From positions 1 through 41,062 of the IMG/VR virus record IMGVR_UViG_3300014613_000012: a stretch of 41,062 nt of DNA, one strand, 5' to 3'. This DNA is from a virus (Duplodnaviria; Caudoviricetes). Made by a program: the position numbers and the translations under genes. This document shows positions 3,922 through 24,026 of this stretch, one piece after another (within the stretch, counting starts at the first letter, position 1; each line of letters starts with the position of its first letter). Under the pieces are notes generated by a model. It was not told the DNA's origin and made no database searches. It saw nothing but the letters and a program-made list of their open reading frames with translations.

Positions 3922-4875
3922 TTACGCCATTGCGCCAGTGACGGACGAGAAGTAGTACGCACATCCCGTTGCAATCAACTGGTGAGTGTACATCGTCGAT
4001 ACTTCGATGATGTCGCCGGAGAGCTTTTCTTCTCTCCACTTCTTGACCTTGTACGGCATACCGGCTTCGCTCACGCGGATCGTGCCAGCAGCAGTGACTT
4101 TCTTCAGGCCAGGGCTCGGATTCTGATACGCAAGAAGCGCATGCCCGCCCCAGATGAAAGTCGTAGACGCCGCAACAGCGGTATTACCAGGAGCTGACTC
4201 CTTGCCGGTGTCGTAAACTGCTTTACCTACGAGAACCTTGTCAACATCGAAGATCGCCGCGAGAAGATCCTCAGTGACGAGAGCGCGTTCGACGTACTGG
4301 ATACGCTGATACACGTTCGGATTCTCTTTCAGGCACTCGAACGTATTCCAGCCGATGATCATCATGTTCGGCTTTACGCCGGACGATTGAACGACAACAC
4401 CAGTGCCAGAGAGCACGTTCTGAATCGGCGCGCTCGTAGTGGTGTTGTACTTCCAACTGGTCGCCGTAGTGTACTGAGTGTTATTCCCCCACGAAGTCGT
4501 CGTAAACAGGAGGCTCATCGCCTCGAACTCCTGCGATAGCAGGATCTGATCAGTCAGGAACTCCGTAGTGTCAACGTCGATATTGATCATGTCCGCATTG
4601 CGGCGATCACGATCAGATACGATGTCAGCAAGAGCGTGCTCGGCTACCGAGTAGCTGGAAGTCGATACGCCCCAGGTGACCATGTTTGACGCGGACTTGT
4701 TACCGCGCAGAGTGTCGTTAATCCGGAACTGACGATCATATACATAGTACAGATCGTTTTCCTTCGTAACTGGAATGTCCTTCAGAAAGTTCGGAGCGAT
4801 GTACTCCGCGTTTTTGTACTGAATAGACAAATTCGTGAGAGCCTTAGAAATATGTAATTGTCCACCGTATGGCAT
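3922..4875 (-). CDS. Major capsid protein (lambda E / Mu T-like, HK97 fold)
   Basis: ALTNLSIQYKN.EYIA, KPNMMIIG...L..NP; 317 aa; strong GGGAGG RBS; follows protease and decoration genes. Confidence 0.88.
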   Translation of the reverse strand: MPYGGQLHISKALTNLSIQYKNAEYIAPNFLKDIPVTKENDLYYVYDRQFRINDTLRGNKSASNMVTWGVSTSSYSVAEHALADIVSDRDRRNADMINIDVDTTEFLTDQILLSQEFEAMSLLFTTTSWGNNTQYTTATSWKYNTTTSAPIQNVLSGTGVVVQSSGVKPNMMIIGWNTFECLKENPNVYQRIQYVERALVTEDLLAAIFDVDKVLVGKAVYDTGKESAPGNTAVAASTTFIWGGHALLAYQNPSPGLKKVTAAGTIRVSEAGMPYKVKKWREEKLSGDIIEVSTMYTHQLIATGCAYYFSSVTGAMA

Positions 4876-4888
4876 AGTTTATCCTCCC

Positions 4889-5296
4889 TTATACCAGAGT
4901 CCCGCCAGGCATCGGGCAAACATAAACAGTCGCCGCACCGCCTGATGCCGGAACGTCAAGAAGCTGACCAACAATACGCTGATTAGCGGTAGTGTTCGTG
5001 AGCGCAACAACGAGGCTCCCGGCAGTAGTAGCCACAAGCCAGTCGCCAAGCGTGCAAGTCGTTCCCGACAGCATGCAGCCAGTAGCCACGCCGTGAGTAA
5101 TGACAGTGACCATCGTAGATCCGCTGGACTGATAGCTGTCGATAATACCGATCACCCTATCTGATGAAGCAGAAGCTACGCAAACAGTCATCGACGCGCT
5201 CAAATAAGCGACTTTATACTGTGACGTAGTAGTACGCGCTCCTGTGCCAGCCGCGAACGTCATACGAGCAGTGTAAGCATTTCCCTTAATAGCCAT
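4889..5296 (-). CDS. Head decoration / capsid cement protein (DUF2190-like)
   Basis: 135 aa, rich in small residues, VIGI...V.VITHG...GD.L; between protease and capsid. Confidence 0.75.
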   Translation of the reverse strand: MAIKGNAYTARMTFAAGTGARTTTSQYKVAYLSASMTVCVASASSDRVIGIIDSYQSSGSTMVTVITHGVATGCMLSGTTCTLGDWLVATTAGSLVVALTNTTANQRIVGQLLDVPASGGAATVYVCPMPGGTLV

Positions 5297-5307
5297 ATTC
5301 GGCCTCC

Positions 5308-6414
5308 TTATTTCCCAACTTCAAGAAGAGCTTGCTTGTAGCTGACCTTGTGATCTTCGGCGTATTTCTTCGCCTTCCGATACAGTTCTTCGTCGTCAGC
5401 TTCCTGGCCCTTCCCGATTTCGGAGTATTCACTTATTGCGCTCATTTCTGGTGTCTGATGATTGTTCTCAATAATAGATTTCACGATGTCAAACGCGCTG
5501 CCTTTAATTTCCTTAGTGGCATCGCCTTCGGCATACGCATGAAGGATTTCGCCTTCTTCGTGCATCGCAAGAGCGAAGAACGCTTCACGCTGCGCCGGTA
5601 CAAACTTCTCTTTGTTCGCGTCCAGGTATGCGTTCACGTCTTTCGCCTTCATCGCACGCTCGTTCTCGGCAATCTTGCCTTGCAGTTCCTGTTTCTCATC
5701 GGCATACGCCTTGAGCTGAGTCTCAAGCTCCGCAATCTTGTCCGTATAGTTTTTTTCAATTTCAGGATTCATTTGATCCTCCTTAATTTCGTGATAACTT
5801 TTCATTGCTTCAAATTCGTTCGCAGTATACAGATTGATGAAGTCGTCAAGCGTCTGTACCGCTGGAGTGTCAGCACCAAGAAGCGCGACAGCACGCAATA
5901 CTCGCTTGTATTTCTTCTCGCCCTCTTTCAGATTCCAGTATATTTCACTGGAAAATCTTCCGTAGGCTTTCGAATTGATCAGTTGGTAAATCTTCTCCGG
6001 TACAGCGGTGAAGCTCGCTAGCAGTCTGTCACCCACGCGGCGGATACCGTTGACCCATCCCGCGGCAGGCATGCCATCCGCCTGCAGGAGCTTCTGATCC
6101 TTGTCGTGACCGAGCTTCAAGTACGGCTTGATCTTCCCACCGATCTCGTTAAACGACTCCACCATTGCGTCAAGATCAGCCTCAGAATACTCGTCACCGT
6201 TCCACTTGCCAGCGGCGAAAATTTCAACATCCGATATATCATACGTCTTACGCTCCTGTATGAGTTTATCAGTCATTTCCTTTTCGCCTTCCTGCTGCTT
6301 GTCCCATTGGCCCTTTAAGAACTCCTTGCGCTTCTCTTCGTCCGGAAACTCAGCCATGAGCTCAGGCTCCGACATCCGCTTCGCGCTGTAGTCCTCGAAG
6401 CTCTCAGGCTTCAT
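5308..6414 (-). CDS. Prohead protease with C-terminal scaffold (Mu I-like)
   Basis: EIFAAGKW, LKLGH, AAGWV, SSEI, AVALLGA.TPAV, then a coiled-coil acidic tail. Confidence 0.85.
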   Translation of the reverse strand: MKPESFEDYSAKRMSEPELMAEFPDEEKRKEFLKGQWDKQQEGEKEMTDKLIQERKTYDISDVEIFAAGKWNGDEYSEADLDAMVESFNEIGGKIKPYLKLGHDKDQKLLQADGMPAAGWVNGIRRVGDRLLASFTAVPEKIYQLINSKAYGRFSSEIYWNLKEGEKKYKRVLRAVALLGADTPAVQTLDDFINLYTANEFEAMKSYHEIKEDQMNPEIEKNYTDKIAELETQLKAYADEKQELQGKIAENERAMKAKDVNAYLDANKEKFVPAQREAFFALAMHEEGEILHAYAEGDATKEIKGSAFDIVKSIIENNHQTPEMSAISEYSEIGKGQEADDEELYRKAKKYAEDHKVSYKQALLEVGK

Positions 6415-12100: not shown

Positions 12101-12286
12101 TCACTTTTTGGCACGCTTTTTGAGTATCGCCGCAGCTTCTTTCATGCCGTCTTTAGTTATAAGCCATTTACCAGCGACATAATCAGCATCGATATCGTTG
12201 TTTTCTGCAAGTCGGCGCATAGTGTAGCGTGACACTCCGAGCTTTTCCCCTGCTTCTACTGTCGTAAATACTTTCGTAAGCCTCAT
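12101..12286 (-). CDS. Excisionase-like HTH DNA-binding protein
   Basis: FTTVEAGEKLGVSRYTMRR...GKWLI (HTH_17/MerR-like). Confidence 0.8.
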   Translation of the reverse strand: MRLTKVFTTVEAGEKLGVSRYTMRRLAENNDIDADYVAGKWLITKDGMKEAAAILKKRAKK

Positions 12287-13590
12287 TTCGCTGCCTCCTT
12301 CTCCAGGCTATCGCAGAATTTTGCGATGTAGTTGATGCTCTCCTGAAATTTCGTCGGATTGTTATCAAGTACCCTCTGCATGTAGTCGATAGCCTTCCGG
12401 TAGTCGCGCTTGTATTTGGCCTCGATCAGGCTTTTGAAGTAATAACACTCTTCGAAGTCGTTGCGCTCTGTTAATATCTGATCGAACCATCGCTCTGACA
12501 TTTTGATGTTATTGCCGAAATAGCCAACTTTATCCGGAGTATTCTCGTCCCACTGGAAATACAGCTTTGCGAGCTGGCTCTTGATCTTCAAGCTGTTCGG
12601 GCATGCTTCCAAGCCTCTTTCCAGCACGCTCCGTCCAAGTTTGAACTCCTTCAAGTTAACCTTGTCCATGCTCCAGAATACCCAACAGTCAGGAAACGCC
12701 GGATACATCTCAAGAGCCTCTTCGTGCTTCTTCTCATAAAACAACTTGATAGCCTTCTGCTGCCGCTCCATGATGTCGATGATCTCTAGATAGTTTTCAC
12801 GCTCGATCTCGTCGGACTTCTCGCACTTCTGCAATAGCACCGTGTAGCCATACATCAGCGTGTCAAGTTTAACGATCTTAAATCCGGTGCGCTTCAACAA
12901 GTTATTAAAAGACTTCTCCGAGAATACGTTAATGTGATTCAGATGATAGTGATGCTCGAAGCTCTCCACCATCTGCAAGCTCGTCTCATCAAGCACATCG
13001 AACCATATCGGCACGCTGAGATAAATATACCCATCATCCGTGAGCAAGTCACGCATTTTTTCAAGCTCCAGCTCCGGAGCCTGCATGTGCTCAAGTACAT
13101 GATAGCAGCTTATAAGATCATATTTCTTCGGCCATTCAGGCTGTATTTCATAATCAACATTCAGCCCGTAATAGTGCTTTGCGAACGACACCAGGGCCCT
13201 GCCCCATTCTGTACCGTACAGATTATCTGTCGGAACTCCATAACGCTGAAAACAGTCCTCAAGCCATCCGCCCTGGGCACATCCTATATCTAGTATAGTC
13301 ATATCTGGATTAACGACGTCTTTCAGAAACTGATGATGATAGCAGTTTTTCCGATTGCTCGTTATGACGTTGTTGAAGCTGACTACATTCCGATCTGTCG
13401 TGTAGTGGTCCTTTAGTGCTCCTTCTGGCCTGTACTGGTAGTTAACATAGCCGCAATACTGGCAGATGCGAAAGCCGATAATTGCGTCAACGTCGATGTA
13501 TTCACGATCAAGCCAATATTCAAGATCACGCATTTTATCAAGATCGTGCCAGTTTTCACTTCCGCAAATCGAGCATTTTTCCATTTTCAT
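12283..13590 (-). CDS. Class I SAM methyltransferase with N-terminal Zn-binding region and C-terminal TPR-like region
   Basis: CSICGS/CQYCG, ILDIGCAQG, YDLI..YHVLEH, helical C-terminus; type common in glycan loci. Confidence 0.85.
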   Translation of the reverse strand: MKMEKCSICGSENWHDLDKMRDLEYWLDREYIDVDAIIGFRICQYCGYVNYQYRPEGALKDHYTTDRNVVSFNNVITSNRKNCYHHQFLKDVVNPDMTILDIGCAQGGWLEDCFQRYGVPTDNLYGTEWGRALVSFAKHYYGLNVDYEIQPEWPKKYDLISCYHVLEHMQAPELELEKMRDLLTDDGYIYLSVPIWFDVLDETSLQMVESFEHHYHLNHINVFSEKSFNNLLKRTGFKIVKLDTLMYGYTVLLQKCEKSDEIERENYLEIIDIMERQQKAIKLFYEKKHEEALEMYPAFPDCWVFWSMDKVNLKEFKLGRSVLERGLEACPNSLKIKSQLAKLYFQWDENTPDKVGYFGNNIKMSERWFDQILTERNDFEECYYFKSLIEAKYKRDYRKAIDYMQRVLDNNPTKFQESINYIAKFCDSLEKEAAK

Positions 13591-14291
13591 TTCCCCAGTA
13601 TTATTTTCAATTCATCGACAGAAAGCATGTGATTCTGATCCGTTTCCGTTTTCCCGTCAATCGTACATTCGAACATAAAGTGTTTCACGCCTATCGCCTT
13701 GAAAGCCTCGTAAGTGTCCGCGATGTAGTCCTTGACTCCCACGCTGTGCGAGCAGTCCACCACAAGCCGATCAAATATCTCTGGCCGCGAGTGCTTGATG
13801 CGGATACATCCCTTCAAGTCTGGACTCCAGCGGCTCCACATCTGCCTGTCAATATCAGATATGCCGCGCTCTACTATGTACACATCCAAGCAATGAACTG
13901 ACTTCGCAATGTCATAAATCCCGCACAGCTCGTCAACAGTCATGCTAGAGCCTCGCTTGATCAGTAGCGGCCTCGCGTACCCGCTGATATCGCTCAGTAG
14001 CCCATAGTTTTGAGAATTGCGTGCGCCAATCCACAAATACGATAGCTCTTTACAATAATAGAATTGATTAGAAGTTTGTATCTCCGTACCTGTAGGAAGT
14101 ATCGCATTGCAGTCATGTAGTGTGTTAAGTCCTTCAACTCCTACGCCAGGATTGTAGCGATCAAGCATCGTACCACCGCCGTATATTTTACAGCGGAACT
14201 TATCGGCCACACCAACAAGAGCCTTCGCAGTCTCTAGTATCGAGTCGTGCTGCTTCGAGTGTGTATATAGGCAGGGCCCTGCGTAAATCAT
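13587..14291 (-). CDS. DAHP synthase I-beta / KDO8P synthase family PEP-utilising aldolase (divergent)
   Basis: AGPC, IGARNSQN, LIKRG, ERG, VDCSHS. Start more likely the ATG at 14291 (MIYAGPC). The KPRT/KANRS motif is absent. Confidence 0.8.
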   Translation of the reverse strand: MIYAGPCLYTHSKQHDSILETAKALVGVADKFRCKIYGGGTMLDRYNPGVGVEGLNTLHDCNAILPTGTEIQTSNQFYYCKELSYLWIGARNSQNYGLLSDISGYARPLLIKRGSSMTVDELCGIYDIAKSVHCLDVYIVERGISDIDRQMWSRWSPDLKGCIRIKHSRPEIFDRLVVDCSHSVGVKDYIADTYEAFKAIGVKHFMFECTIDGKTETDQNHMLSVDELKIILGK

Positions 14292-14452
14292 ATCTCTATC
14301 CTCTCCCCGCACTTCTCGCAAATGATCTTTATCGGAACGTTTGTGTCATCAGGGCTGAAGTTGTTTGACGATATAACTAGAGCCATCGGCCCTATATCGC
14401 TGATATCGTTATACGTTCCGCATTTCGTGCATTTAACAACATCGACAGACAT
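14288..14452 (-). CDS. 54-aa zinc-ribbon protein
   Basis: Not in the track. MSVDVVKCTKCG...ICEKCGERIEI, translationally coupled at both ends. Confidence 0.7.
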   Translation of the reverse strand: MSVDVVKCTKCGTYNDISDIGPMALVISSNNFSPDDTNVPIKIICEKCGERIEI

Positions 14453-14721
14453 TAGTAATACATCCTTTTATGCTGTGAGAATAGCCAAGCATGGAAATCC
14501 GCGGTGTCCTTTTTCTTGATGAATCCGCGCCGCTGCATCTCGGCCCAAATCTTAGTTTGTTTTCGTTCCAAGTCAAGTATATTTACCCACGGTATCTTGT
14601 CGGACTTAAATGATATCTCCTTGTACAGATCAGCCGCTAGACGTTTCAGGGCCCCGTTGGACATTACTCCAAGCTGGAGCGCGAATGCCTCTTGACTGAT
14701 TGTATACAAGTTTTGTGCCAT
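14452..14721 (-). CDS. Hypothetical protein
   Basis: 89 aa, TAATG-coupled within the sugar cluster. Confidence 0.65.
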   Translation of the reverse strand: MAQNLYTISQEAFALQLGVMSNGALKRLAADLYKEISFKSDKIPWVNILDLERKQTKIWAEMQRRGFIKKKDTADFHAWLFSQHKRMYY

Positions 14722-15722
14722 TACATATTATAATAATACGACTTATGCCAATTCCAGTATTCTGATATCGCCTCGATAAGCGGCGTGACAGATATCTCCC
14801 TGCCAGTGTATTCCTCTATTTTGGTATTGTCGGATACTAGACCAATAACATCGCCATCCTGCATTTCTGCATTTACGGTAATTGCTTTTTTCCCTATAAC
14901 GCTCTCTATTGTCTCGACAAATTCAGTAAGCCATATTTTCCGCGATGATCCTATATTGTAAACTTCGCTTCTTGTTGAGATGTCTTTTGAATATACATCG
15001 ATAAAACTCTTAAAGACATCAATAAGATCATAAATATATGTGAAGTCACGAAACATCATACCATTATTGTTTATTGTTATTTGCTCACCGTTATATATAG
15101 CATCACAAAAATGATGCAGTGCCATATCAGGACGACCAAACGGACCAAATGCCGTGAAGAATCGTAGTCCAGCCGATGACATATTATACATATTGCCATA
15201 TACATTAGCGCACAATTCGTCGAACTTCTTCGTTGCTGCATATAGACTTACAGGAGTATCCGTCCTGTCTGTTTCTGATGATAAACTGTTTTGTGTAGCT
15301 CCATATACTGACGAGCTACTGGCATATATAATTTTTTTAATGCCGAACTCGCGGCACATTTCCAGAATGTTTACGAATCCAGTTACGTTTGAATCTATAT
15401 AAGCATCCTGATTTATCTTTGAGTATCTCACGCCAGCCTGCGCTGCGAGGTGTATCACCATGTCTATATTATTCCAAGCAAATATTTTTTCAAGACCAGT
15501 CCTGCTTTCTATCGATTCCTTATAAAACTTAACATTATAATCATTAACATCATACAGACCAGTAGAAATATCAAATCCTATTTTTTGGAGTCTCGCATTC
15601 TTAATTCTTACATCATAATAATCGTTTAGATTGTCAATACACACAACACTATTGTCCCTTTTGAGAGCTTCCACCAAATGGAAACCGATAAATCCTGCTG
15701 CTCCAGTTATTAGTATGTTCAT
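14721..15722 (-). CDS. NAD-dependent nucleotide-sugar epimerase (UDP-glucuronate 4-epimerase-like)
   Basis: ITGAAGFIG, HLAAQAGVRYS, YASSSSVYG, YAATKK, GRPDMA, RDFTYI. Confidence 0.93.
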   Translation of the reverse strand: MNILITGAAGFIGFHLVEALKRDNSVVCIDNLNDYYDVRIKNARLQKIGFDISTGLYDVNDYNVKFYKESIESRTGLEKIFAWNNIDMVIHLAAQAGVRYSKINQDAYIDSNVTGFVNILEMCREFGIKKIIYASSSSVYGATQNSLSSETDRTDTPVSLYAATKKFDELCANVYGNMYNMSSAGLRFFTAFGPFGRPDMALHHFCDAIYNGEQITINNNGMMFRDFTYIYDLIDVFKSFIDVYSKDISTRSEVYNIGSSRKIWLTEFVETIESVIGKKAITVNAEMQDGDVIGLVSDNTKIEEYTGREISVTPLIEAISEYWNWHKSYYYNM

Positions 15723-17050
15723 GTTTTCACCGCGCCACTATTGCAAGGATGATCTGATTGCGCCGTCTTTTGGCTGTCATGATGCCTGTATTTCCACAAA
15801 GGCTTTTCAACAAACGCCACTTTGTAATTCTTGCGGAACGACTCCCAGAACGGAGGACCGTCAAGATATTTCACATCTTCCTTGTATCCGATCTCGTTTA
15901 CGCACCATTTGGATATCAAGCAAGACGCCGGATGCCATCTATTTTCTAGCACTTCGCCGGTGGCCTTCATGTCCTCGTCAGCGTCATAATATCCAGATAA
16001 TACCGCCTGCGCGTTCTCTATGTCAAGCGTCTCTATCATAGTTTCGACTGCTTCCGGTAGAAGCACATCGTCGCTGTCAAGACGCATAATATATCTACCG
16101 CGTGCGTGCTTCAGTGCTCTATTGCTAGACGCCGACAGACCGATATTCCTGTCGTTTCTCAGCACTTTTACACGCTTCCTCGTCGGCTCCGGTAGAGTAG
16201 TGTACCACTCCATTATCACGTTCATAGAGTCGTCAGTCGATTTGTCGTCTATGACTATGTATTCGATATCCCCGAACGTCTGCGCTATCACGCTATCTAT
16301 GCACTCTCGGATGTACTTACTTGTATTGTAATTGCAAGTGTATATTGTCACCTGCGGAAGATGATTGATCTGCAGAAAGTACTTGTGATTCTTCAGAAAG
16401 TTAACAATATCAAGCGTGCCGATTGGCTCCGACAGCGAGACGTGAAGCAGGCGCAGAAGAGTCAAGTCCTCCTCGTAATCCATCGTCAGGCGGTAGCTGA
16501 ACTTGTATTCATACGGCGGGAAATACTCTTTGTAAATGAATTTATCGTTTTTCAGGTAATAGCTTACAAACTCTACCGGCGTAGAGCCAACTTTCTCAAT
16601 CACCTTTTTTAAGGCAGATACTTTTATCACTTCGCCTGCGATGCCTTCAGGACACTGCTTCATATAAGTGTAATCGAGCCCGCCGCGGATATGGAACTTG
16701 ATCTGATTCCGCATCAACGTCTGATCGATCAGGATGTCGTCGGCTGTGATCCTGACGACGTGCTGGAAGTCGTTGTCTACAGCGCAGTGATACAAGCGAT
16801 GCAGCGGACTGTCATCATAGCCGCGGTACACATCGACGCCCTTGTCAATGGCGATCTGCTCCAGGATGTCGTTTTCCTTGCTTTCAGGTATGGCCAAGAT
16901 GACTTGATATTTGTTGTCGTCCGCGATGACGTGATCAAGCAGGATCTCGATTGCATACCGATTCTTGATCCTGGCGAGCACCTTTTCGGGAAGTCGCGTT
17001 GACTTCACCCGCGCCGTAACGATAATTCCGCATCTGTCCATCATGCCCAT
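15719..17050 (-). CDS. SpsF-like cytidylyltransferase fused to a GT2 glycosyltransferase
   Basis: N-terminal ARVKSTRLPEKVL, VVRITAD, RLTMDYEED; C-terminal YN..KYI..CIDSV..QT, IDDKSTD, RLDSDD. Confidence 0.9.
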   Translation of the reverse strand: MGMMDRCGIIVTARVKSTRLPEKVLARIKNRYAIEILLDHVIADDNKYQVILAIPESKENDILEQIAIDKGVDVYRGYDDSPLHRLYHCAVDNDFQHVVRITADDILIDQTLMRNQIKFHIRGGLDYTYMKQCPEGIAGEVIKVSALKKVIEKVGSTPVEFVSYYLKNDKFIYKEYFPPYEYKFSYRLTMDYEEDLTLLRLLHVSLSEPIGTLDIVNFLKNHKYFLQINHLPQVTIYTCNYNTSKYIRECIDSVIAQTFGDIEYIVIDDKSTDDSMNVIMEWYTTLPEPTRKRVKVLRNDRNIGLSASSNRALKHARGRYIMRLDSDDVLLPEAVETMIETLDIENAQAVLSGYYDADEDMKATGEVLENRWHPASCLISKWCVNEIGYKEDVKYLDGPPFWESFRKNYKVAFVEKPLWKYRHHDSQKTAQSDHPCNSGAVKT

Positions 17051-17922
17051 ATATCCGCGCTAGTGCAATTTCGGCAAGTCTCCGGCATGTCGATGTCATA
17101 TATACGCCTGAGCTCATGCCGTTTCCCCCACGACACATAGCCTTTAATGCCGATCTGGATGTCCTCAGGCTCGTTATAACATACGCAGCAAGGATATACT
17201 TTCCCGTTGGCTAGATGCGTCACGCGACGATTCATGTGCGGACACATCTTTTTCCGCTTCCTGCGCTTCGGAGTATTCGAAATGTCAGAGCCTTCGCGCC
17301 GCTCGGTATATCGTTCAACAATCTTGAACTCAGGATAATGCTTTTTGAAAACAGCAAAATCATCATCCCAATTCAATGCGTTCTTGTGGAAATTGAGACG
17401 GACCCGCGCTTTCAGCTTGTTAAATCGTTTCAACTGATGCAGGTATGCGATATTTGACCGCATGCGATAGAACTGATCCGGAGTAGATCCGTGAAGCCTC
17501 TGGTATGTCCCAACGTCTGACGCATCCACGCTGACAATAATCGTGTCAATACCGGCGTCTAGTATCTCGTCAAGAAGCTGCGGGACCATCGTCAGATTAG
17601 TGTTTATCATTACGTCAATATAGCCAAGCTGTTTAGCCAGCTTGATCGCCGGAATAAGAGTTACCGCAAGCGCAGGCTCGCCGCGAAGATTGAATTTCAC
17701 GGATTTGGCAGTCTTAGAGAAATACCATAGAATGCGCTCTACATCTTCCCACGGCATTTGAGCGATCTCGAACTTGCGCTCTTCCGGCTTACTGTGCCAG
17801 CAAGATACACACGCCTGATTGCAGTTATTGTTTAGCTCGATGTCAATATGTATCGGGAGATCGTACCGGAGGAATCCGCGAAACCACCACTGAAGGCGGT
17901 AGATGTAATATTTATAATCCAT
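17041..17922 (-). CDS. Radical SAM / SPASM(twitch) protein
   Basis: CNQACVSC, RGEP, NTN, and C-terminal C...G.VYPCC...CRNC. Confidence 0.9.
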   Translation of the reverse strand: MDYKYYIYRLQWWFRGFLRYDLPIHIDIELNNNCNQACVSCWHSKPEERKFEIAQMPWEDVERILWYFSKTAKSVKFNLRGEPALAVTLIPAIKLAKQLGYIDVMINTNLTMVPQLLDEILDAGIDTIIVSVDASDVGTYQRLHGSTPDQFYRMRSNIAYLHQLKRFNKLKARVRLNFHKNALNWDDDFAVFKKHYPEFKIVERYTERREGSDISNTPKRRKRKKMCPHMNRRVTHLANGKVYPCCVCYNEPEDIQIGIKGYVSWGKRHELRRIYDIDMPETCRNCTSADIWA

Positions 17923-17970
17923 ATTCTCAGTTGATAGCTACACAAACATTATGTATTGTTTTTTGTCAAC

Positions 17971-17999
17971 AAAAAAAACGCCCCCATCGCTGGAGGCGC
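17971..17999 (-). terminator. Rho-independent terminator ending the early/middle region
   Basis: Minus strand GCGCCTCCA-gcga-TGGGGGCG followed by T8. Confidence 0.75.
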
Positions 18000-18023
18000 A
18001 AATACCAATACCCTTTTAGGAGG

Positions 18024-18353
18024 TTACATAGCAATTGAATAAAACTCGCGGCGAAGATAGTCCTGATCGTCATCGTCGCGCAGCTTCTCGTAATACTCGT
18101 CCGTGATCTCATCTCGGTGATGCGCGATGATGCTGTCTTTTATCGTCTCGTCCAGATCGAGCTTTTCCGTATAGTCATACAGCCTATCTCCTTCCACATA
18201 TCGGTAGTGTACTTCCCCGTATGCGTCAATATCGATGAACTCGATCTTTTTGCCTTCCCATGTGAAACGCGCTTCGATGAAGAATTTGACGCCGGCCACC
18301 TGTCCTACTTCCTGCTTACAAATCTCGATGTTTCCAACTCTGTTTATAGTCAT
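18024..18353 (-). CDS. Acidic hypothetical protein
   Basis: 109 aa, ACAAAGGAGAA RBS. Confidence 0.7.
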   Translation of the reverse strand: MTINRVGNIEICKQEVGQVAGVKFFIEARFTWEGKKIEFIDIDAYGEVHYRYVEGDRLYDYTEKLDLDETIKDSIIAHHRDEITDEYYEKLRDDDDQDYLRREFYSIAM

Positions 18354-18408
18354 CTTAATTCTCCTTTGTCTTGTATTTCAGAGGGGCTCTCGCCCCTCTC
18401 CGCTTTTC

Positions 18409-18591
18409 TTAATAACTGATCGTCATCCCGCCTGGCTGTCCCATCCATATTTCTGGGATAGTTCCACATTCCACAATCCGAGGATCGGTAAAAACTTTCG
18501 CCAAACGCTTCGCCTTTTTAAGCGTATCAGCATAGCCGGCGACCTCGAAACTCTTGTTGTGCTTGTTGAAGTAAGTTACAGTGTAAATCAT
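18409..18591 (-). CDS. Small hypothetical protein
   Basis: Start at 18591 (MIYTVTYF) after ACAAAGGAGAA. Confidence 0.65.
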   Translation of the reverse strand: MIYTVTYFNKHNKSFEVAGYADTLKKAKRLAKVFTDPRIVECGTIPEIWMGQPGGMTISY

Positions 18592-18608
18592 CGCGTTCTC
18601 CTTTGTTA

Positions 18609-18770
18609 CTATTTGATTATCTCTGTTTTGACGCCATCGATCACGCAAAAGTAATATCCGACTGCATCCAAATTGTATTCAGCTATTTTCCTAGCCATGT
18701 TCGACAGATCGCTCAAATTCTTTTTTTGCTTCGCGTCTTTTCTGCTCTTCTCAACTTGCTTTGTAGTCAT
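18609..18770 (-). CDS. 53-aa hypothetical protein
   Basis: Not in the track. MTTKQVEKSRK...KTEIIK after ACAAAGGAGAA. Confidence 0.6.
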   Translation of the reverse strand: MTTKQVEKSRKDAKQKKNLSDLSNMARKIAEYNLDAVGYYFCVIDGVKTEIIK

Positions 18771-18799
18771 TGCATTTCTCCTTTGTTCTTTATGTTAAT

Positions 18800-18828
18800 A
18801 ATATATGTATTTTTATGTTAATCGTCAA
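18800..18828 (-). promoter_or_regulatory. sigma70-like promoter
   Basis: TTGACG-17bp-TATATT; ATTAACATAAA occurs twice around it (possible operator). Confidence 0.7.
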
Positions 18829-19096
18829 CTCTTTTTCTCTGGAATTTATAACTTTTTTTCGGAGGCGGTAACACTATTCCAGCAGCGTCCAAAGCAGTCC
18901 GAAAGTCGTGCTCCGTCCAGATATCTCCATCCATATCCGCATGGCCTGAGTGGCAGTACTCGCATACTAGCATTATGTTTAGTGAATTGTTTATCAGGGA
19001 TCGTCCGTAGTGTTTGACGTTGGCCTTCGTCTGCGGAAAGCGGTGATGTCGCTGTGTCGCCGGACGTGTGCGGCATCGCTGGCATGGGCGTATCAT
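18818..19096 (-). CDS. HNH-like / Zn-binding protein
   Basis: CQRC...HHRFPQ...N..LVCEYCH; probable start 19096. Confidence 0.6.
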   Translation of the reverse strand: MIRPCQRCRTRPATQRHHRFPQTKANVKHYGRSLINNSLNIMLVCEYCHSGHADMDGDIWTEHDFRTALDAAGIVLPPPKKSYKFQRKRVDD

Positions 19097-19101
19097 CCCT
19101 C

Positions 19102-19416
19102 TTACTCTCCAGATAAATGATCGCGGACTTTGTCTATTTGATATATCACCTTCTGCCACCGTGAAGGCTCAAACGTAGTTCCGTAGTTCGTTTTCCACAT
19201 ATCATATGCTTCGATCAGCTCTCGCACATCGTCGCGGAAAGTGTCGTCGCCCGATAGTATAGATAATACTGTTTTCTCGTCGTAATATCGCACAGTATCA
19301 GAACTATTGCAATTTCCGCACGTTGTTACGTCAGGCAAGTTAATGCCTATCATCCCACACTCAAAACATTTCGTCAACACACTATGAATATTTACAATAT
19401 CTCTCTCGCTCCTCAT
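19102..19416 (-). CDS. Zn-ribbon hypothetical protein
   Basis: CFECG...CGNC; GGAG RBS. Confidence 0.65.
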   Translation of the reverse strand: MRSERDIVNIHSVLTKCFECGMIGINLPDVTTCGNCNSSDTVRYYDEKTVLSILSGDDTFRDDVRELIEAYDMWKTNYGTTFEPSRWQKVIYQIDKVRDHLSGE

Positions 19417-19443
19417 GCTCCCTCCCTCGCGTAGTATAATATT

Positions 19444-19668
19444 TCATCTCTCCACCTCCCCGGTGATGCGATCTAAAATGCAACGGATAACATACTTAGT
19501 CGCAACTGGATTGAATGGATTATTCACCACTCGTCCAAGATTCTCTGCTATATCCTCCCGCTCGCGGAGAAGCGGCTCGATGTCGGAGTGCAAACAATAT
19601 TTTCCCAGCCATACCTCCTCCATTCCGCGAGGACACGTTCGCAAGCAATCATACCGCTGTATCTTCAT
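19444..19668 (-). CDS. Hypothetical protein
   Basis: Probable start MKIQRY after GGAGGGGAG; contains GKYCLHSD. Confidence 0.6.
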   Translation of the reverse strand: MKIQRYDCLRTCPRGMEEVWLGKYCLHSDIEPLLREREDIAENLGRVVNNPFNPVATKYVIRCILDRITGEVER

Positions 19669-19715
19669 CTCCCCTCCTTCGCCCTCCGCGCTGAGTGGGC
19701 GCGATATCTGTAATA

Positions 19716-19741
19716 AGTTTCGCATATAACCTGTTAGCGGA
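19716..19741 (+). repeat. Array-initial half site (attI-like or truncated attC)
   Basis: tttcgcatataacct-GTTAGCG; shares tttcgcatat with the right arm of attC1; no partner arm found upstream. Confidence 0.5.
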
Positions 19742-20015
19742 AATGCTCGCTTAATCTTTTCAATTTATTTTCAATTTTTTTTAACTCTGATATAACATAT
19801 TCATCATCACTATCTCCGGCAATGTTTGCCATAAATAAACTTGTATATTGGCTAATTAAGTTTTCAATATCAATCCGCACATCCGCTAACAGCGAATATG
19901 CGTTCGCCTCCGGCAAATTGCGAGGCTCATAGTGTGTGCACCCGCACCCATTCACGCGCTCGCCAAATACAACGTGCCTACATACTACCTTGTGCATACA
20001 GTCAAAACAGTCCAC
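19734..20015 (-). CDS. Cassette 1 hypothetical protein
   Basis: GTG start with GAGGAGG RBS inside attC1; stop TAA lies within the GTTAGCG core. Confidence 0.7.
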   Translation of the reverse strand: MDCFDCMHKVVCRHVVFGERVNGCGCTHYEPRNLPEANAYSLLADVRIDIENLISQYTSLFMANIAGDSDDEYVISELKKIENKLKRLSEHFR

Positions 20016-20058
20016 CGTTTACCTCCTCGCAATTTCGCATATCCGCAATCTGTTGTAC
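19884..20058 (+). repeat. attC-like site 1 (175 bp)
   Basis: CGCTAAC agcgaatatgcg...aaattgcgagg [loop] cctcgcaattt cgcatatccgc aatct GTTGTAC. Confidence 0.75.
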
Positions 20059-20070
20059 GCCATGCCGAGC

Positions 20071-20235
20071 CTATCGGCGGCGGCCATCCGTGGCCGCCCG
20101 TTGCATAAAAATATCCAAAAACTCTTTTTCTGGATTTCCCTCGTACAATATATCATAGTCAACATATCCATGTTCAATAAGGTACTCATTGTATTTAATC
20201 AATATTGCCCAAATATATTGTTTGTCCTTTTGCAT
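20071..20235 (-). CDS. Cassette 2, 54-aa hypothetical protein
   Basis: Not in the track. MQKDKQYIWAIL...AATDGRRR. Confidence 0.55.
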   Translation of the reverse strand: MQKDKQYIWAILIKYNEYLIEHGYVDYDILYEGNPEKEFLDIFMQRAATDGRRR

Positions 20236-20238
20236 GAT

Positions 20239-20892
20239 TTACCCCCACTGTTCAGACATAGCCGATGCGATACCATGATACGCTTTTGGGTATGAACATT
20301 CACTGTATTTTAAATTATTCATAACCTCTTTTTTATAATTCTTATCCCCGACAATAAATAAATATCTGTGTTTTCTCGGTCTATCAAGTAAATAAAAATC
20401 ATCCCCGTATTTATCCCGCATTGCCCGTGCCCTGTTTTCACATCCTCTGAACTCATCCGCTATGGTCTGCCCGTGTAAATGTTCTTTCCCTTTTATTTTC
20501 CAATCTGTTCTTTTCGCCGAGAGTCCTGTATAAATAAAATTTGTTGCTTGATAAACATATCCAACATGATTTTGGCTACTATCTGCAAAAGACACAATTA
20601 TTTTATTTTTTGGTAACATTTTTAAACTATTCCCGACAAGAAAACTTGCTTCATTTTTCCTATTGTATTTTAAGCAGAGTCTATTTAATTCTAAAATATC
20701 AGAAATAAACCTATCTCCGGCAATTCCCCTTCTAAGTGGGGCACTTGCCGGTGTTCCATAAGTTACAACACCACACAGTTCATTATCAACAAATAATCCA
20801 AACGCATAAGATATTGACGGCCATCTTTTAGCATAGTGCAACTCTAAAATATATTCGCTGCAATCAATCCTATTTATTTTTTTTACCATCAT
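20239..20892 (-). CDS. mom: Mom-family (GNAT-like) DNA adenine modification protein
   Basis: HYAKR, GVVTYG.P, LELNRL, NEASFL, VSFADS.Q.HVG.VYQATNFIYTG. Start more likely 20892 or 20889 than 20985. Confidence 0.85.
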   Translation of the reverse strand: MMVKKINRIDCSEYILELHYAKRWPSISYAFGLFVDNELCGVVTYGTPASAPLRRGIAGDRFISDILELNRLCLKYNRKNEASFLVGNSLKMLPKNKIIVSFADSSQNHVGYVYQATNFIYTGLSAKRTDWKIKGKEHLHGQTIADEFRGCENRARAMRDKYGDDFYLLDRPRKHRYLFIVGDKNYKKEVMNNLKYSECSYPKAYHGIASAMSEQWG

Positions 20893-20927
20893 TAAACTAT
20901 CCTCTGCGCTTCGGTACGTCCTGTACC

Positions 20928-21086
20928 TCACATACACCACACATAAGCACCAATCAATATAAACTCTACCGCCATTAGAACACATATTGCAAGATAGAAC
21001 ACACGGCTTTCATGAACGGCATCCGCGATATATGCAAGAAGCATTATCAATGGAATCGTCAATATTAACTTGCCAAGTATTTCCAC
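20928..21086 (-). CDS. Cassette 2, 52-aa two-TM membrane protein
   Basis: Not in the track. GTG start, MEILGKLILTIPLIMLLAYIAD...FILIGAYVWCM; bracketed by a ~30-bp direct repeat. Confidence 0.55.
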   Translation of the reverse strand: MEILGKLILTIPLIMLLAYIADAVHESRVFYLAICVLMAVEFILIGAYVWCM

Positions 21087-21159
21087 AACCAGCCCCCCTC
21101 TACGCTTCGGTACATCCGTGTACCTCGCTAAAACAATCTATTGCTACACTCGGCACGGC

Positions 21160-21214
21160 GCACAACAACCGCTATACGCCATTTCACGGCGCATAGCTTG
21201 TAATGCTGTTAGCG
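21160..21214 (+). repeat. attC-like site 2 (55 bp)
   Basis: GCACAAC aacc gctatacgcc atttcac ggcgcatagc ttgtaatgct GTTAGCG. Confidence 0.8.
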
Positions 21215-21460
21215 GAAATACCGCCTAAACTTTTTGAATTTATTACCCGTCCTCGGATCGTATCCTCTAAAATAATCCACACATACGCACTGTTCGCACT
21301 CAAAATCAGGACTATATTTGCATACGTAATCACCATGCCATTGATCTCTGTAACTGCCGCACGGCGGTACTTCCGCTAACACGGCGTAAACGACAGCCGA
21401 CCTTATTTTAGACCATAGACTTTGTTTCTTAACCGCGACTATTTCATGAAATAAATTCAT
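21209..21460 (-). CDS. Cassette 3 Cys-rich hypothetical protein
   Basis: AGGAGG RBS and ATG inside the attC3 loop; stop in the GTTAGCG core. Confidence 0.7.
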   Translation of the reverse strand: MNLFHEIVAVKKQSLWSKIRSAVVYAVLAEVPPCGSYRDQWHGDYVCKYSPDFECEQCVCVDYFRGYDPRTGNKFKKFRRYFR

Positions 21461-21501
21461 ATTTCCTCCTTCGGCCTACGCCTACGCCATGACTGTTATA
21501 T
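21374..21501 (+). repeat. attC-like site 3 (128 bp)
   Basis: CGCTAAC ac ggcgtaaacg acagccga [loop] tcggcct acgcctacgcc atgact GTTATAT. Confidence 0.75.
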
Positions 21502-21515
21502 GCAATGCCGCTCAT

Positions 21516-21719
21516 CTATTGGCACGAAATGCCAGTGTCCTTATAGTGTGACCCAGAGAACATCCTGCCACAATGCACTGGCCGAACACAAGACGAATCA
21601 ACCTTTATCCCGCCATTATACACTTCGCAGATGGTCTTATTGCATCCAGACGCGGCACAGCATATAACAGCGCATACGCAAAACCGCACCAAAGACTTCG
21701 ACAATCTATTTGACTTCAT
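21516..21719 (-). CDS. Cassette 4 Cys-rich protein, possible lipoprotein
   Basis: GGAGG RBS; hydrophobic N-terminus ending ASGC; reads through the attC4 left arm. Confidence 0.55.
   Translation of the reverse strand: MKSNRLSKSLVRFCVCAVICCAASGCNKTICEVYNGGIKVDSSCVRPVHCGRMFSGSHYKDTGISCQ
21662..21690 (+). repeat. attC-like site 4, left arm only
   Basis: ATATAAC agcgcatacgc... complements the cassette start GTTATAT; right arm not found. Confidence 0.6.
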
Positions 21720-21740
21720 GATACTACCTCCGCAATTATT

Positions 21741-21962
21741 TTATTGCCGCACGTCATCCCGCGTCTCGATCTTCTCGCGCCATATCGCCTGACGATAGCA
21801 CTCCACTACATGCTCATCGGGAGCAAGATACACTGTAGTAATTGCCTTCTGTAGCTCCATCTCTTCTTCGAGCTCATAGACACGCCCGTTTAGACGCATC
21901 ACCATTATCGTCGTTGCTATCGCCCATGCCGCAAGTCCGAAATACGCCAGCCGTTTAATCAT
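21741..21962 (-). CDS. Membrane-anchored hypothetical protein
   Basis: N-terminal hydrophobic helix then coiled coil. Confidence 0.6.
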   Translation of the reverse strand: MIKRLAYFGLAAWAIATTIMVMRLNGRVYELEEEMELQKAITTVYLAPDEHVVECYRQAIWREKIETRDDVRQ

Positions 21963-22084
21963 CTCCGGTATTTCTCCTTGTAGTATTTTTCTAAATTCAG
22001 GAACTCAGCATCGCGCTTGCGCTTGTCCCTGTACCAAATAGCTATCAAGCAAATAAACGAAACTAGAACTATCAGCTTTTCCAT
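21959..22084 (-). CDS. 41-aa membrane peptide
   Basis: Not in the track. MEKLIVLVSFICLIAIWYRDKRKR..., overlapping both neighbours. Confidence 0.5.
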   Translation of the reverse strand: MEKLIVLVSFICLIAIWYRDKRKRDAEFLNLEKYYKEKYRR

Positions 22085-22653
22085 ATCTTCCCCCGCATCT
22101 CTAGAACGTGCTCCTGGTGTTGTTGAAATGTCACGTCATCCAAGCGGCTAGACTTGCTGCATCCGAGATGTCCGCCCAGATCATCAGTAAGACGTATTTC
22201 CAGCTTGCCGAGATATTCCATCATTTCATCCATCGTCACCGTAGCCAACGATGGAATATATCCGAGCAGTTTATCGTCGTCGTCCACCAGGAGCGCGAGC
22301 CCTTGCAAGTGCTGATATAATAGCTTAGTCCCGCGGCGGAAAGCGTAATACCCGTTTCGGAAATACCTGCCATCGATGCTGTTGATGTCGTCGCACTTAG
22401 CAAACAGATATTCATATTTAAGCTCGAAGTGCATCTTGTCTCGATCAGTCTCGCCTGCTGCGTGCGTGATATCCGGCAGAAGATATCCACGATAAAAACG
22501 ATGCGCGTACTGCGCAGGCTTGTCCACAACTTCAATGCGGAACTCCACATTTTTATTCGCAGACAATACGAGGAAATTGCGGATCTGCTTCCGCGCCGTC
22601 TCGCTAATGGAGCCCTGCTTATCTACGGCTGTGTCGATGTTTATCTTACGCAT
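22072..22653 (-). CDS. NinB/Orf-like recombination accessory protein (putative)
   Basis: QYAHRFYRG..L..I...GE....MH..LK and S.A.....EM.EY pattern. Confidence 0.55.
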   Translation of the reverse strand: MRKINIDTAVDKQGSISETARKQIRNFLVLSANKNVEFRIEVVDKPAQYAHRFYRGYLLPDITHAAGETDRDKMHFELKYEYLFAKCDDINSIDGRYFRNGYYAFRRGTKLLYQHLQGLALLVDDDDKLLGYIPSLATVTMDEMMEYLGKLEIRLTDDLGGHLGCSKSSRLDDVTFQQHQEHVLEMRGKIWKS

Positions 22654-22680
22654 TTCAACTCTCCTTTTTTTTATAACAAC

Positions 22681-22709
22681 ACTATATTTATTTTATTGTT
22701 ATGCGTCAA
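22681..22709 (-). promoter_or_regulatory. sigma70-like promoter facing ninB and the cassette array
   Basis: TTGACG-17bp-TATAGT. Confidence 0.75.
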
Positions 22710-22716
22710 CTAAAAA

Positions 22717-23313
22717 TTACTCTTCCAGCATTTTTCTTGTTAAGTCATTAACAAGTTTAGAAAATTCTTTATTCGCTTTGTTTTCGAGCTGTGCTATGTT
22801 TTTATTCGACAGCTGCGGCACACTTGACGATATCAAGATCGGCTCGGACTCGTCGGCTATTCCGCGGAGCACTTTACGCTCCACGTCAGGTGGGCTCTCT
22901 CGGTAGTAGCAATATGACTTGATAAAACGAGTCTCTACAAATGGCAGCTTGTCCACGTCCGTATTGCACAGAGCTACATACCCGCCACAGTCTATAAGTG
23001 CTTCCTGGGCCGCGACGTTATCCACGATCAAGTCACGATAGATATTCACGCTGTCAACTATCCGCTTGAACTCATGCCGCGCCTCTGCCTCCATCGCCCT
23101 GGTGTCAGGCACTGTCAGCTTGCGTATAGCCGCGACGTCTGGCGGAGTTTTATACTGATTCGAGTAGTTGGCAATAACTCGCTCCAGCAAGTTTTCAAGC
23201 TCGCTCTCGCGGTAGTTATTCATAACATACGACAGCACAACTCCGTTAACTGTTGCGTTTCTATACTCGCCGTAATACGCTTCGATGGCGTTTATGAAGT
23301 CTGCGTGTGTCAT
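22717..23313 (-). CDS. Replication accessory protein (DUF6475 / helicase-loader-like)
   Basis: PPDVAAI...A..E...I...GGY..LC...F...Y; downstream of the initiator. Confidence 0.55.
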   Translation of the reverse strand: MTHADFINAIEAYYGEYRNATVNGVVLSYVMNNYRESELENLLERVIANYSNQYKTPPDVAAIRKLTVPDTRAMEAEARHEFKRIVDSVNIYRDLIVDNVAAQEALIDCGGYVALCNTDVDKLPFVETRFIKSYCYYRESPPDVERKVLRGIADESEPILISSSVPQLSNKNIAQLENKANKEFSKLVNDLTRKMLEE

Positions 23314-24026
23314 CACATAACCTCGCAAAATAATCCGCAGTCAGGAACTATAATTGGCATAATCCTTCCGCGATCTTTCGGCAAGTCTATTAAATTAAAC
23401 TCCTTGAATATTCTCCCGCCTATAATGCTTTCAAGCTCGCACCTCGACGCGAACACAGCCGGGAAATCGCCACGAATCTTATTCCAGTACCCCATCCCTC
23501 CCTTCAAGCACCCGATGCAATTATTGTTCGGGTATCCCATATCATACATCACCGGCCTTTTTATCCCCGCCGCATCAAGTATCCCATGAGCCGCTGCCTT
23601 GTCAATATTGCCATCAATCAGCGGGAACAAATGCTCGCACTCCGGCATGGAGATTAGAAGCCGCTCGGCTCTCTCTCTCTCTCCACAATCGAAACCCCAC
23701 ACATAGGTGCAATCCTTCCCGTGTTCCATCTCCCAAATCTGCCGAACCCTGCGTTTTAATAATCTAGTGCAAGCCGCCCCATGCGGCGAATTTATAAATC
23801 CTGCCTTACGGCAAGCATTTTCCACACTCTTTAATTCTGACTGGTTAATCTCTACCGGAACGCCGAACCAATCCTCACAGTCCTTAATAAATCTCAATGT
23901 ATCTTCGTGTTGATCGTCGATATGAGTATAAATAACTTTAACATCACCGTACTTGTTGATAACCATCTTAGTAGCAACTGCACTTGATACACCGGCACTA
24001 AACCACGATACAATCATTCTCTCCAC
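23313..24026 (-). CDS. PAPS-reductase-like (PP-loop) phage protein
   Basis: WFSAGVSSA, CTRLLK, FPLI, YDMGYPNNNCIGCLKGG.GYW, CGLFC. Confidence 0.8.
   Translation of the reverse strand: MERMIVSWFSAGVSSAVATKMVINKYGDVKVIYTHIDDQHEDTLRFIKDCEDWFGVPVEINQSELKSVENACRKAGFINSPHGAACTRLLKRRVRQIWEMEHGKDCTYVWGFDCGERERAERLLISMPECEHLFPLIDGNIDKAAAHGILDAAGIKRPVMYDMGYPNNNCIGCLKGGMGYWNKIRGDFPAVFASRCELESIIGGRIFKEFNLIDLPKDRGRIMPIIVPDCGLFCEVM

Follow-up and report, generated by a model that had tools for sequence, protein, structure and literature searches.

How can a phage keep an array of integron-like cassettes without an integrase of its own? The question is raised by a 41-kb tailed phage, whose record we analysed over its full 41,062 nt (the window). 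An earlier note had described four consecutive units in it, each opening on a GTT core whose extended reverse complement marks the other end of the unit, and had read them as a shufflable accessory locus run in trans by a host integron-type integrase. The genome is complete (123-nt terminal repeat, completeness 100%), every recognised gene lies on its minus strand, and the array has replication genes on one flank and a modification/packaging block on the other. As had been claimed, the phage encodes no tyrosine recombinase: a six-frame family search found no PF00589 domain, scans of 68 ORFs found no recombinase, and tblastn with 38 recombinases gave a best E of 0.038, which is not meaningful. 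A complete integron, in contrast, carries intI in cis.

The end-to-end inverted repeats were recovered exactly where they had been described, for C1 at 19733/19890 (12/14 matches), for C2 at 20052/21166 (16/18), for C3 at 21208/21380 (16/17), and for C4 at 21495/21668 (15/17). The mismatch said to be common to them lies at position 11 from the G of GTT, both in 4/4 bodies of the window and in 5/5 bodies of G006, a 33-kb phage record (locus L001) found by a pattern scan with hairpin A. A strict scanner detected C2 to C4, that is, two adjacent links, with C1 slightly below the cut-off, while the links in 100 local shuffles of the window averaged 0.03 and never exceeded 1. The four-unit inverted-repeat observation is confirmed as real and beyond chance.

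The array consists of a dif/attI-like entry site, three full cassettes and one truncated cassette (all on the plus strand). Its left end is not a hairpin but the entry site, GTTTCGCATATAACCTGTTAGCGGAAAT (19717-19744), made of an 11-nt arm, a 6-nt spacer and an 11-nt arm. We infer that crossover occurs there at G|TT, 19733/19734. Judged by anatomy and conservation only, an attI-like double-stranded site thus heads the array. C1 (19734-20052) is a body plus hairpin site A (19880-20063; AAC 19888-19890, GTT 20052-20054, 4-nt right-arm bulge) and has as its homologue the fourth cassette of G006. C2 (20053-21208) ends in hairpin site B (21156-21219; AAC 21164-21166, GTT 21208-21210), which has an atypical 6-nt offset, and shares its body ends with the second G006 cassette. 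C3 (21209-21495) ends in hairpin site C (21370-21506; AAC 21378-21380, GTT 21495-21497, 4-nt bulge). Terminal C4 (21496-21690) has a body, an R'' core (AAC 21666-21668) and a left arm; because no right arm was found for it, we regard it as truncated. In hairpins A, B and C the stem begins one base past AAC, yet 5-7 bases before GTT, which leaves a one-sided bulge of 4, 6 and 4 nt, respectively, and no extrahelical bases. On folding, which had been proposed as a check, the minus strand gave the better structure at each of the three hairpins between units (z -2.4 to -2.6).

All cassette ORFs with a ribosome-binding site (RBS) run antisense to the site polarity, in the window and in G006. The C1 gene (93 aa, 19734-20015, minus strand) and the Cys-rich C3 gene (83 aa, 21209-21460, minus strand) share one layout: the RBS lies in the hairpin stem, the start in the loop, and the reading frame crosses the left arm to stop in the core, where the opening three bases of the cassette form the stop codon. 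A unit running from one G|TT to the next thus contains a complete gene. The earlier note mentions neither the antisense orientation nor the starts in the loops. The cargo of C2 includes a Mom-family DNA-modification gene (20239-20985, minus strand; PF25680, E 1e-39; phrog_1384, E 1e-53) whose true start is likely near 20892, and two ORFs that matched no family (54 aa, 20071-20235; 52 aa, 20928-21086; both minus strand). Mom has an anti-restriction role, and the C2 gene is likely anti-restriction cargo. A 21-nt repeat with an RBS stands ahead of two C2 genes (20901-20921 and 21097-21117) and recurs in the corresponding G006 shell; it may be a point of cargo swapping. A 67-aa ORF (21516-21719, minus strand) reads into C4, and its RBS and first codons are common to G006, where this start region is fused to a different tail. 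Beyond it lies the flanking gene (73 aa, 21741-21962, minus strand), which has a homologue of 41% identity on the same side of the array in G006. Elsewhere in the window (12283-17922, minus strand, and 1160-2188) are radical SAM, glycosyl/cytidylyltransferase, epimerase, DAHP-synthase-family and methyltransferase genes. This cluster, partly common to capsid relatives of the phage, is possibly a pathway for sugar modification of DNA or the virion.

One possibility is that the hairpins are mRNA structures only, serving translational coupling or processing, with no recombination of DNA. The better-folding strand is indeed the phage mRNA strand and the RBSs of C1 and C3 do lie in stems; however, this would leave unexplained the matching of cores across bodies, the entry site and the core-exact breakpoints described below, and like sites occur in cells where the genes run the opposite way. 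We find this explanation hardly credible. A scan of window positions 17500-24000 against Rfam returned no hits, and a promoter/terminator scan gave signal near the shuffle level.

G006 provides the comparison in which cassettes differ in place. The two phages have only 4/61 ORFs in common, including the flanking gene and the replication initiator, and their terminase, portal and capsid families differ. At the equivalent locus G006 nevertheless has the same entry site, with homology stopping just past GTT. C1 is first in the window and fourth in G006, and its homology runs from GTT 19733 to GTT 20054 between unrelated neighbours and with a different loop. The second G006 cassette has the first 16 nt and the last 80 nt of the C2 body around different cargo, and a different hairpin. 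In the comparison with a relative, which the note had put forward as a check, the cassettes differ in both order and content. Its expectation of breakpoints at G|TT was borne out by C1 but not by C2, which diverges from its G006 counterpart exactly at the AAC core. Furthermore, two G006 cassettes with unlike bodies have one hairpin in common. The distal G006 cassettes (L001 2260-2870) show right arms only or a mutated core, which is consistent with decay away from the entry site.

It could be speculated that the array is a relic, laid down in the past by a recombinase lacking the I2 insertion of IntI (see below) and that its only changes today come from homologous recombination of the phage between arms that are alike. 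In favour of this are the truncation of C4 and the atypical site B; moreover, hairpin loops and the C2 cargo have been swapped inside common shells, the phage encodes a PD-(D/E)XK exonuclease, and the arms also serve for coding and as RBS, a second use that could preserve them. Nor were the excised-circle joints that had been suggested as a check found in two groundwater runs, in a comparison limited to contigs, which lose rare variants. Both runs (possibly the source of the record) carry the array stretch in one contig with zero differences; in two others, X3 and X4, only short pieces of the Mom gene were covered. Against relics, a non-coding entry site is retained in two otherwise distant phages, the body ends still match at 12-16 of 17 positions with the fixed mismatch of the family, and the breakpoints lie at cores. 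We consider relics rather unlikely.

G006 was the only comparator phage found at the DNA level. Among capsid-related phages 8/9 lacked linked cassette bodies and the ninth had AT-rich links only. Of 29 records, 3 matched in their DNA, G006 alone at the sites, and GenBank phages gave no DNA match. The pattern scans for further comparators yielded G006 as the only array-bearing one: one scan had no hits, one had three (G006, a chance match and L002, a short viral record that is rich in AT and has four hairpins of this bulged type), and the others returned G006 only. Scans with an entry-site pattern gave 8 viral and 33 metagenome hits, with arrays only in G006 and in one record of the window's size. 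At the protein level, single-protein viral searches with the C1 and flanking genes found no relatives, and an atlas search with the C3 protein gave nothing usable. Four full-length homologues of the C3 protein (55-76%) keep the site-encoded motif. Six true homologues of the C1 protein have the stem-encoded motif in common while their halves vary independently; two of them, P0171 and P0174, are alike in the half from the loop and diverge at the residues that the core encodes. A seventh hit was rejected as an unrelated repeat protein.

Are the phage sites attC sites? As in attC, AAC and GTT cores (R'' and R') bound their hairpins. By canonical attC geometry, however, all seven phage sites score only 3-6 of 12 pairs, compared to 8-11 of 12 for 6/7 sites under a bulged geometry. 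Extrahelical bases on the R''-L'' arm, a hallmark of attC in the available text of PMC2727003, were absent from the phage-site folds. So was the two-sided unpaired spacer (5 and 5-6 nt): the spacer largely pairs, with a one-sided excess of 3-6 nt that falls on the right arm as +3 or +4 in 6/7 sites. The phage sites match hairpins in cellular genomes, described below. The bottom strand is the better folder, in terms of folding and not of activity, at 7/7 phage and 27/31 host sites; A stands at position 11 in 7/7 and 31/31; and the position-11 mismatch is present in 9/9 phage and 17/18 host bodies. Body ends of the phage cassettes retain it among matches at 12-16 of 17 positions. Host stems show no G-T strand bias (11 vs 15), and a MAFFT alignment of the sites was too poor for a covariance model. 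The identification of the phage sites as IntI-type attC was thus not upheld: they failed the canonical geometry, and their cellular counterparts adjoin recombinases without the I2 insertion. The phage array is integron-like in its working, yet fails defining features of attC and IntI.

Two other identities were considered for these elements. The Flavo-1 RNA (RF01705) was rejected, as its covariance model matched 0/5 records (controls were silent too) and the sequences look unrelated to those in the available part of PMC2864571. An origin of the antisense genes from inverted host cassette bodies was rejected because the position-11 asymmetry retains the host polarity.

Clusters of attC without an integrase (CALINs) are already known from phages, 17 being given in the accessible text of Qi et al. 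2023 (PMC9892861). The window resembles these in being an integrase-free phage cluster with DNA-modification cargo for which a host enzyme is assumed in trans, and it likewise has no integrase nearby; its sites are attC-like by anatomy but fail the structural features of attC. Unlike the window array, the published clusters were found by attC models and were recombined by IntI1. That text describes no entry site for virulent phages, and no uniform antisense layout, site-crossing genes or bulged sites. In searches of the open-access literature we found no bulged sites, cassette recombinases lacking I2 or antisense phage arrays.

Cellular genomes contain bulged hairpins too; there each cassette has a single gene, in sense orientation. 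About 8/36 genome hits were real sites by eye. The recombinase of one array-bearing genome (PF13495 plus PF00589) was used as query against two groups of genomes and matched 6/86 and 18/42 of them, giving 31 loci. The domain combination is that of IntI, and a top PDB match is IntI4. However, the query (L047) scored 166 against the IntI model TIGR02249, whose cut-off is 265, and the candidate enzyme also fell below the cut-offs of TIGR02224 and TIGR02225 (XerC/XerD). A gap at I2 was present in 7/7 aligned candidate proteins, which are about 41 residues shorter than IntI, and the spacing between motifs was 64-65 aa in 18/18 measurable I2-less proteins as compared to 106-109 aa in 14/14 IntI. A quick tree places the I2-less enzymes beside IntI and apart from XerC/D, with a support of only 83 for the group, two rows dropped and a long-branch warning.

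Bulged sites lay within 1.5 kb of 7/31 I2-less loci (the other 24/31 had none) and of 0/27 IntI loci. In extended loci we counted 20 bulged sites at 7 I2-less loci, which had been chosen for already showing sites, and none at 12 IntI loci of the same class. This IntI control is thin because 11/12 extended loci showed no array; the remaining one had a canonical array. At ten chosen cellular loci 25/28 hairpins had a right-arm excess of +2 to +4 (offsets of -6 to +8 being allowed), compared to 2/12 hairpins in ten rounds of shuffling. One genome (G145) carries both kinds, a canonical array by an IntI gene and a bulged array by a broken I2-less gene. With an entry-type pattern that was drawn up after the sites had been seen, matches near the 31 I2-less loci were found downstream in 8 and upstream in 4, against 54/6900 shuffled windows, and the plus strand of the phage window has a single match, at 19721. 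In place of 5 nt in the phage entry site there are 6 in most host entry sites, and none of 151 genomes matched a stricter pattern built on the phage.

Bulged arrays were seen in Atribacterota, an archaeal MAG, another bacterial class and Bacteroidota plasmids. Examples are L192 (in the archaeal MAG, G003) and L249/L279 (in G118). The G118 array lies upstream of the recombinase and divergent from it, as in classical integrons. A plasmid of Pontibacter kalidii (L323) has an entry-pattern match at 6211, 131 nt beyond the stop codon of the recombinase; small genes in the same orientation come next, and none of the hairpins there was above threshold. This species would offer a cultured source of the enzyme. 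On plasmid pHH1107 (FJ012881.1, ~4865-6110; L324) the order is tnpF, an entry-type site, tet(X3) and a remnant of R'' plus left arm. TnpF is 57% identical to the I2-less recombinase over its C-terminal part, and this protein hit recurs on many Acinetobacter plasmids. The ends of the tet(X3) unit match at 9/13 positions by eye, with the position-11 mismatch present, and its entry-type site does not match the pattern used for the scans. tet(X3) may be a cassette of the bulged, I2-less system. As to the host of the phage, capsid and initiator homologues are for the most part unnamed or give conflicting MAG labels and pointed to no one host; the host sites and loci counted here are those of array-bearing cells, not of an assigned phage host.

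These loci bear on whether a classical host IntI, acting in trans on a phage CALIN, could run the array. The GTT/AAC cores and the cassette logic are integron-like, IntI is present in 20/42 genomes of one class in which bulged arrays also occur, and 5/6 phage attC sites tested were recombined by IntI1 according to the consulted portion of PMC9892861. The phage sites, however, are without extrahelical bases and their spacer is largely paired, and a VCR site without extrahelical bases and with its spacer paired lost bottom-strand recombination 8.5x10^4-fold, those mutants being bulge-free (PMC2727003, available text). Together with the absence of bulged sites from the 27 short and 12 extended IntI loci, for all the thinness of that control, this makes IntI a quite improbable candidate. 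The comparison with classical integrons (available parts of PMC2727003 and PMC4792948) gives likenesses in the double-stranded entry site, hairpin-bounded cassettes, GTT/AAC cores, polarity and distal decay. It gives differences in the paired spacer with a one-sided bulge and no extrahelical bases, the 11-nt arms with a fixed position-11 mismatch, and an enzyme that is about 41 aa shorter and has no I2. Most host loci seen also have the array downstream of the enzyme gene, and the genes of a complete integron are sense, with a promoter at attI, in contrast to the antisense phage cassettes.

Another possibility is that host XerCD acts on dif mimics, as in CTX phage, in which case the entry site might serve the phage for attachment in a lysogeny without integrase. 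Two arms around a 6-nt spacer make a dif-like geometry, and the phage arms presumably resemble XerC sites. CTX phage does rely on the XerCD of its host, which acts on a folded strand that has no extrahelical bases (PMC4792948, in the text available), and so shares with the system considered here a host tyrosine recombinase without I2 that acts on a folded, dif-mimicking strand. CTX differs, however, in that the accessory cassettes of the present phage form an array and its candidate enzyme is neither XerC nor XerD. Against XerCD, the right arm is variable in its middle from cassette to cassette although the XerD arm is the conserved one, the hairpin scan gave no site beside the XerC/D loci L040-L046, the arrays adjoin a separate recombinase group, and no repressor or lysogeny module was recognised among the phage ORFs. 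This makes XerCD very improbable.

The explanation that we favour, and consider probable, is that the array is integron-like and is worked in trans by a tyrosine recombinase of the host that has no I2 insertion. It draws on the anatomy, the absence of a recombinase from the phage, the order and content of G006 and the occurrence of the site type beside I2-less recombinases. What remains of the host-run shufflable locus first proposed is the G|TT cassettes, the variable accessory locus and the enzyme in trans, without the integron-type (IntI) sites. During replication the minus (bottom) strand would fold into a dif-like site of arm, 6-bp spacer with a 3-4-nt bulge, and arm, at which the host enzyme would cut at G|TT. 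Cassettes would be excised hairpin by hairpin and inserted at the double-stranded entry site, so that new cassettes would arrive on the left, while decay would affect the older ones on the right. With an RBS and a gene of its own, a unit would be read by the leftward transcription of the phage. Provided that the fork moves in the direction of transcription (a direction inferred from gene orientation and strand skew only), the reversed layout would make the folding strand the lagging-strand template; this placement favours excision in integrons (PMC5371416, available text). The same layout may keep captured host cassettes silent in the phage.

It is possible, though doubtful, that phages parasitise a second, I2-less integron in a way that reassorts loops and bodies into chimeric phage proteins. 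Such a pre-I2 integron would be a candidate, still extant, for the step that is missing between Xer recombinases and IntI. Lacking the extrahelical bases that select the strand, the sites might be cut at both cores; loops (RBS plus an N-terminal Cys-rich module) and bodies (a C-terminal module) could then reassort independently, and the array would be a combinatorial generator of chimeras. The divergence of C2 from its G006 counterpart at AAC, the G006 hairpin shared by unlike bodies and the pair P0171/P0174 hint at this, as does the finding, in the available text of PMC2727003, that loss of extrahelical bases in VCR moves top-strand crossover to R''.

If the favoured explanation is correct, phages borrow a gene-shuffling enzyme of their hosts to diversify accessory genes, the Mom DNA modifier among them, and tools built on attC models may overlook the bulged class of cassette arrays. 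How the I2 domain and the extrahelical bases of attC arose jointly has been called a chicken-and-egg paradox (Escudero et al., PMC4792948, available text); a hairpin-cassette system that works without I2 or extrahelical bases would make that paradox testable.
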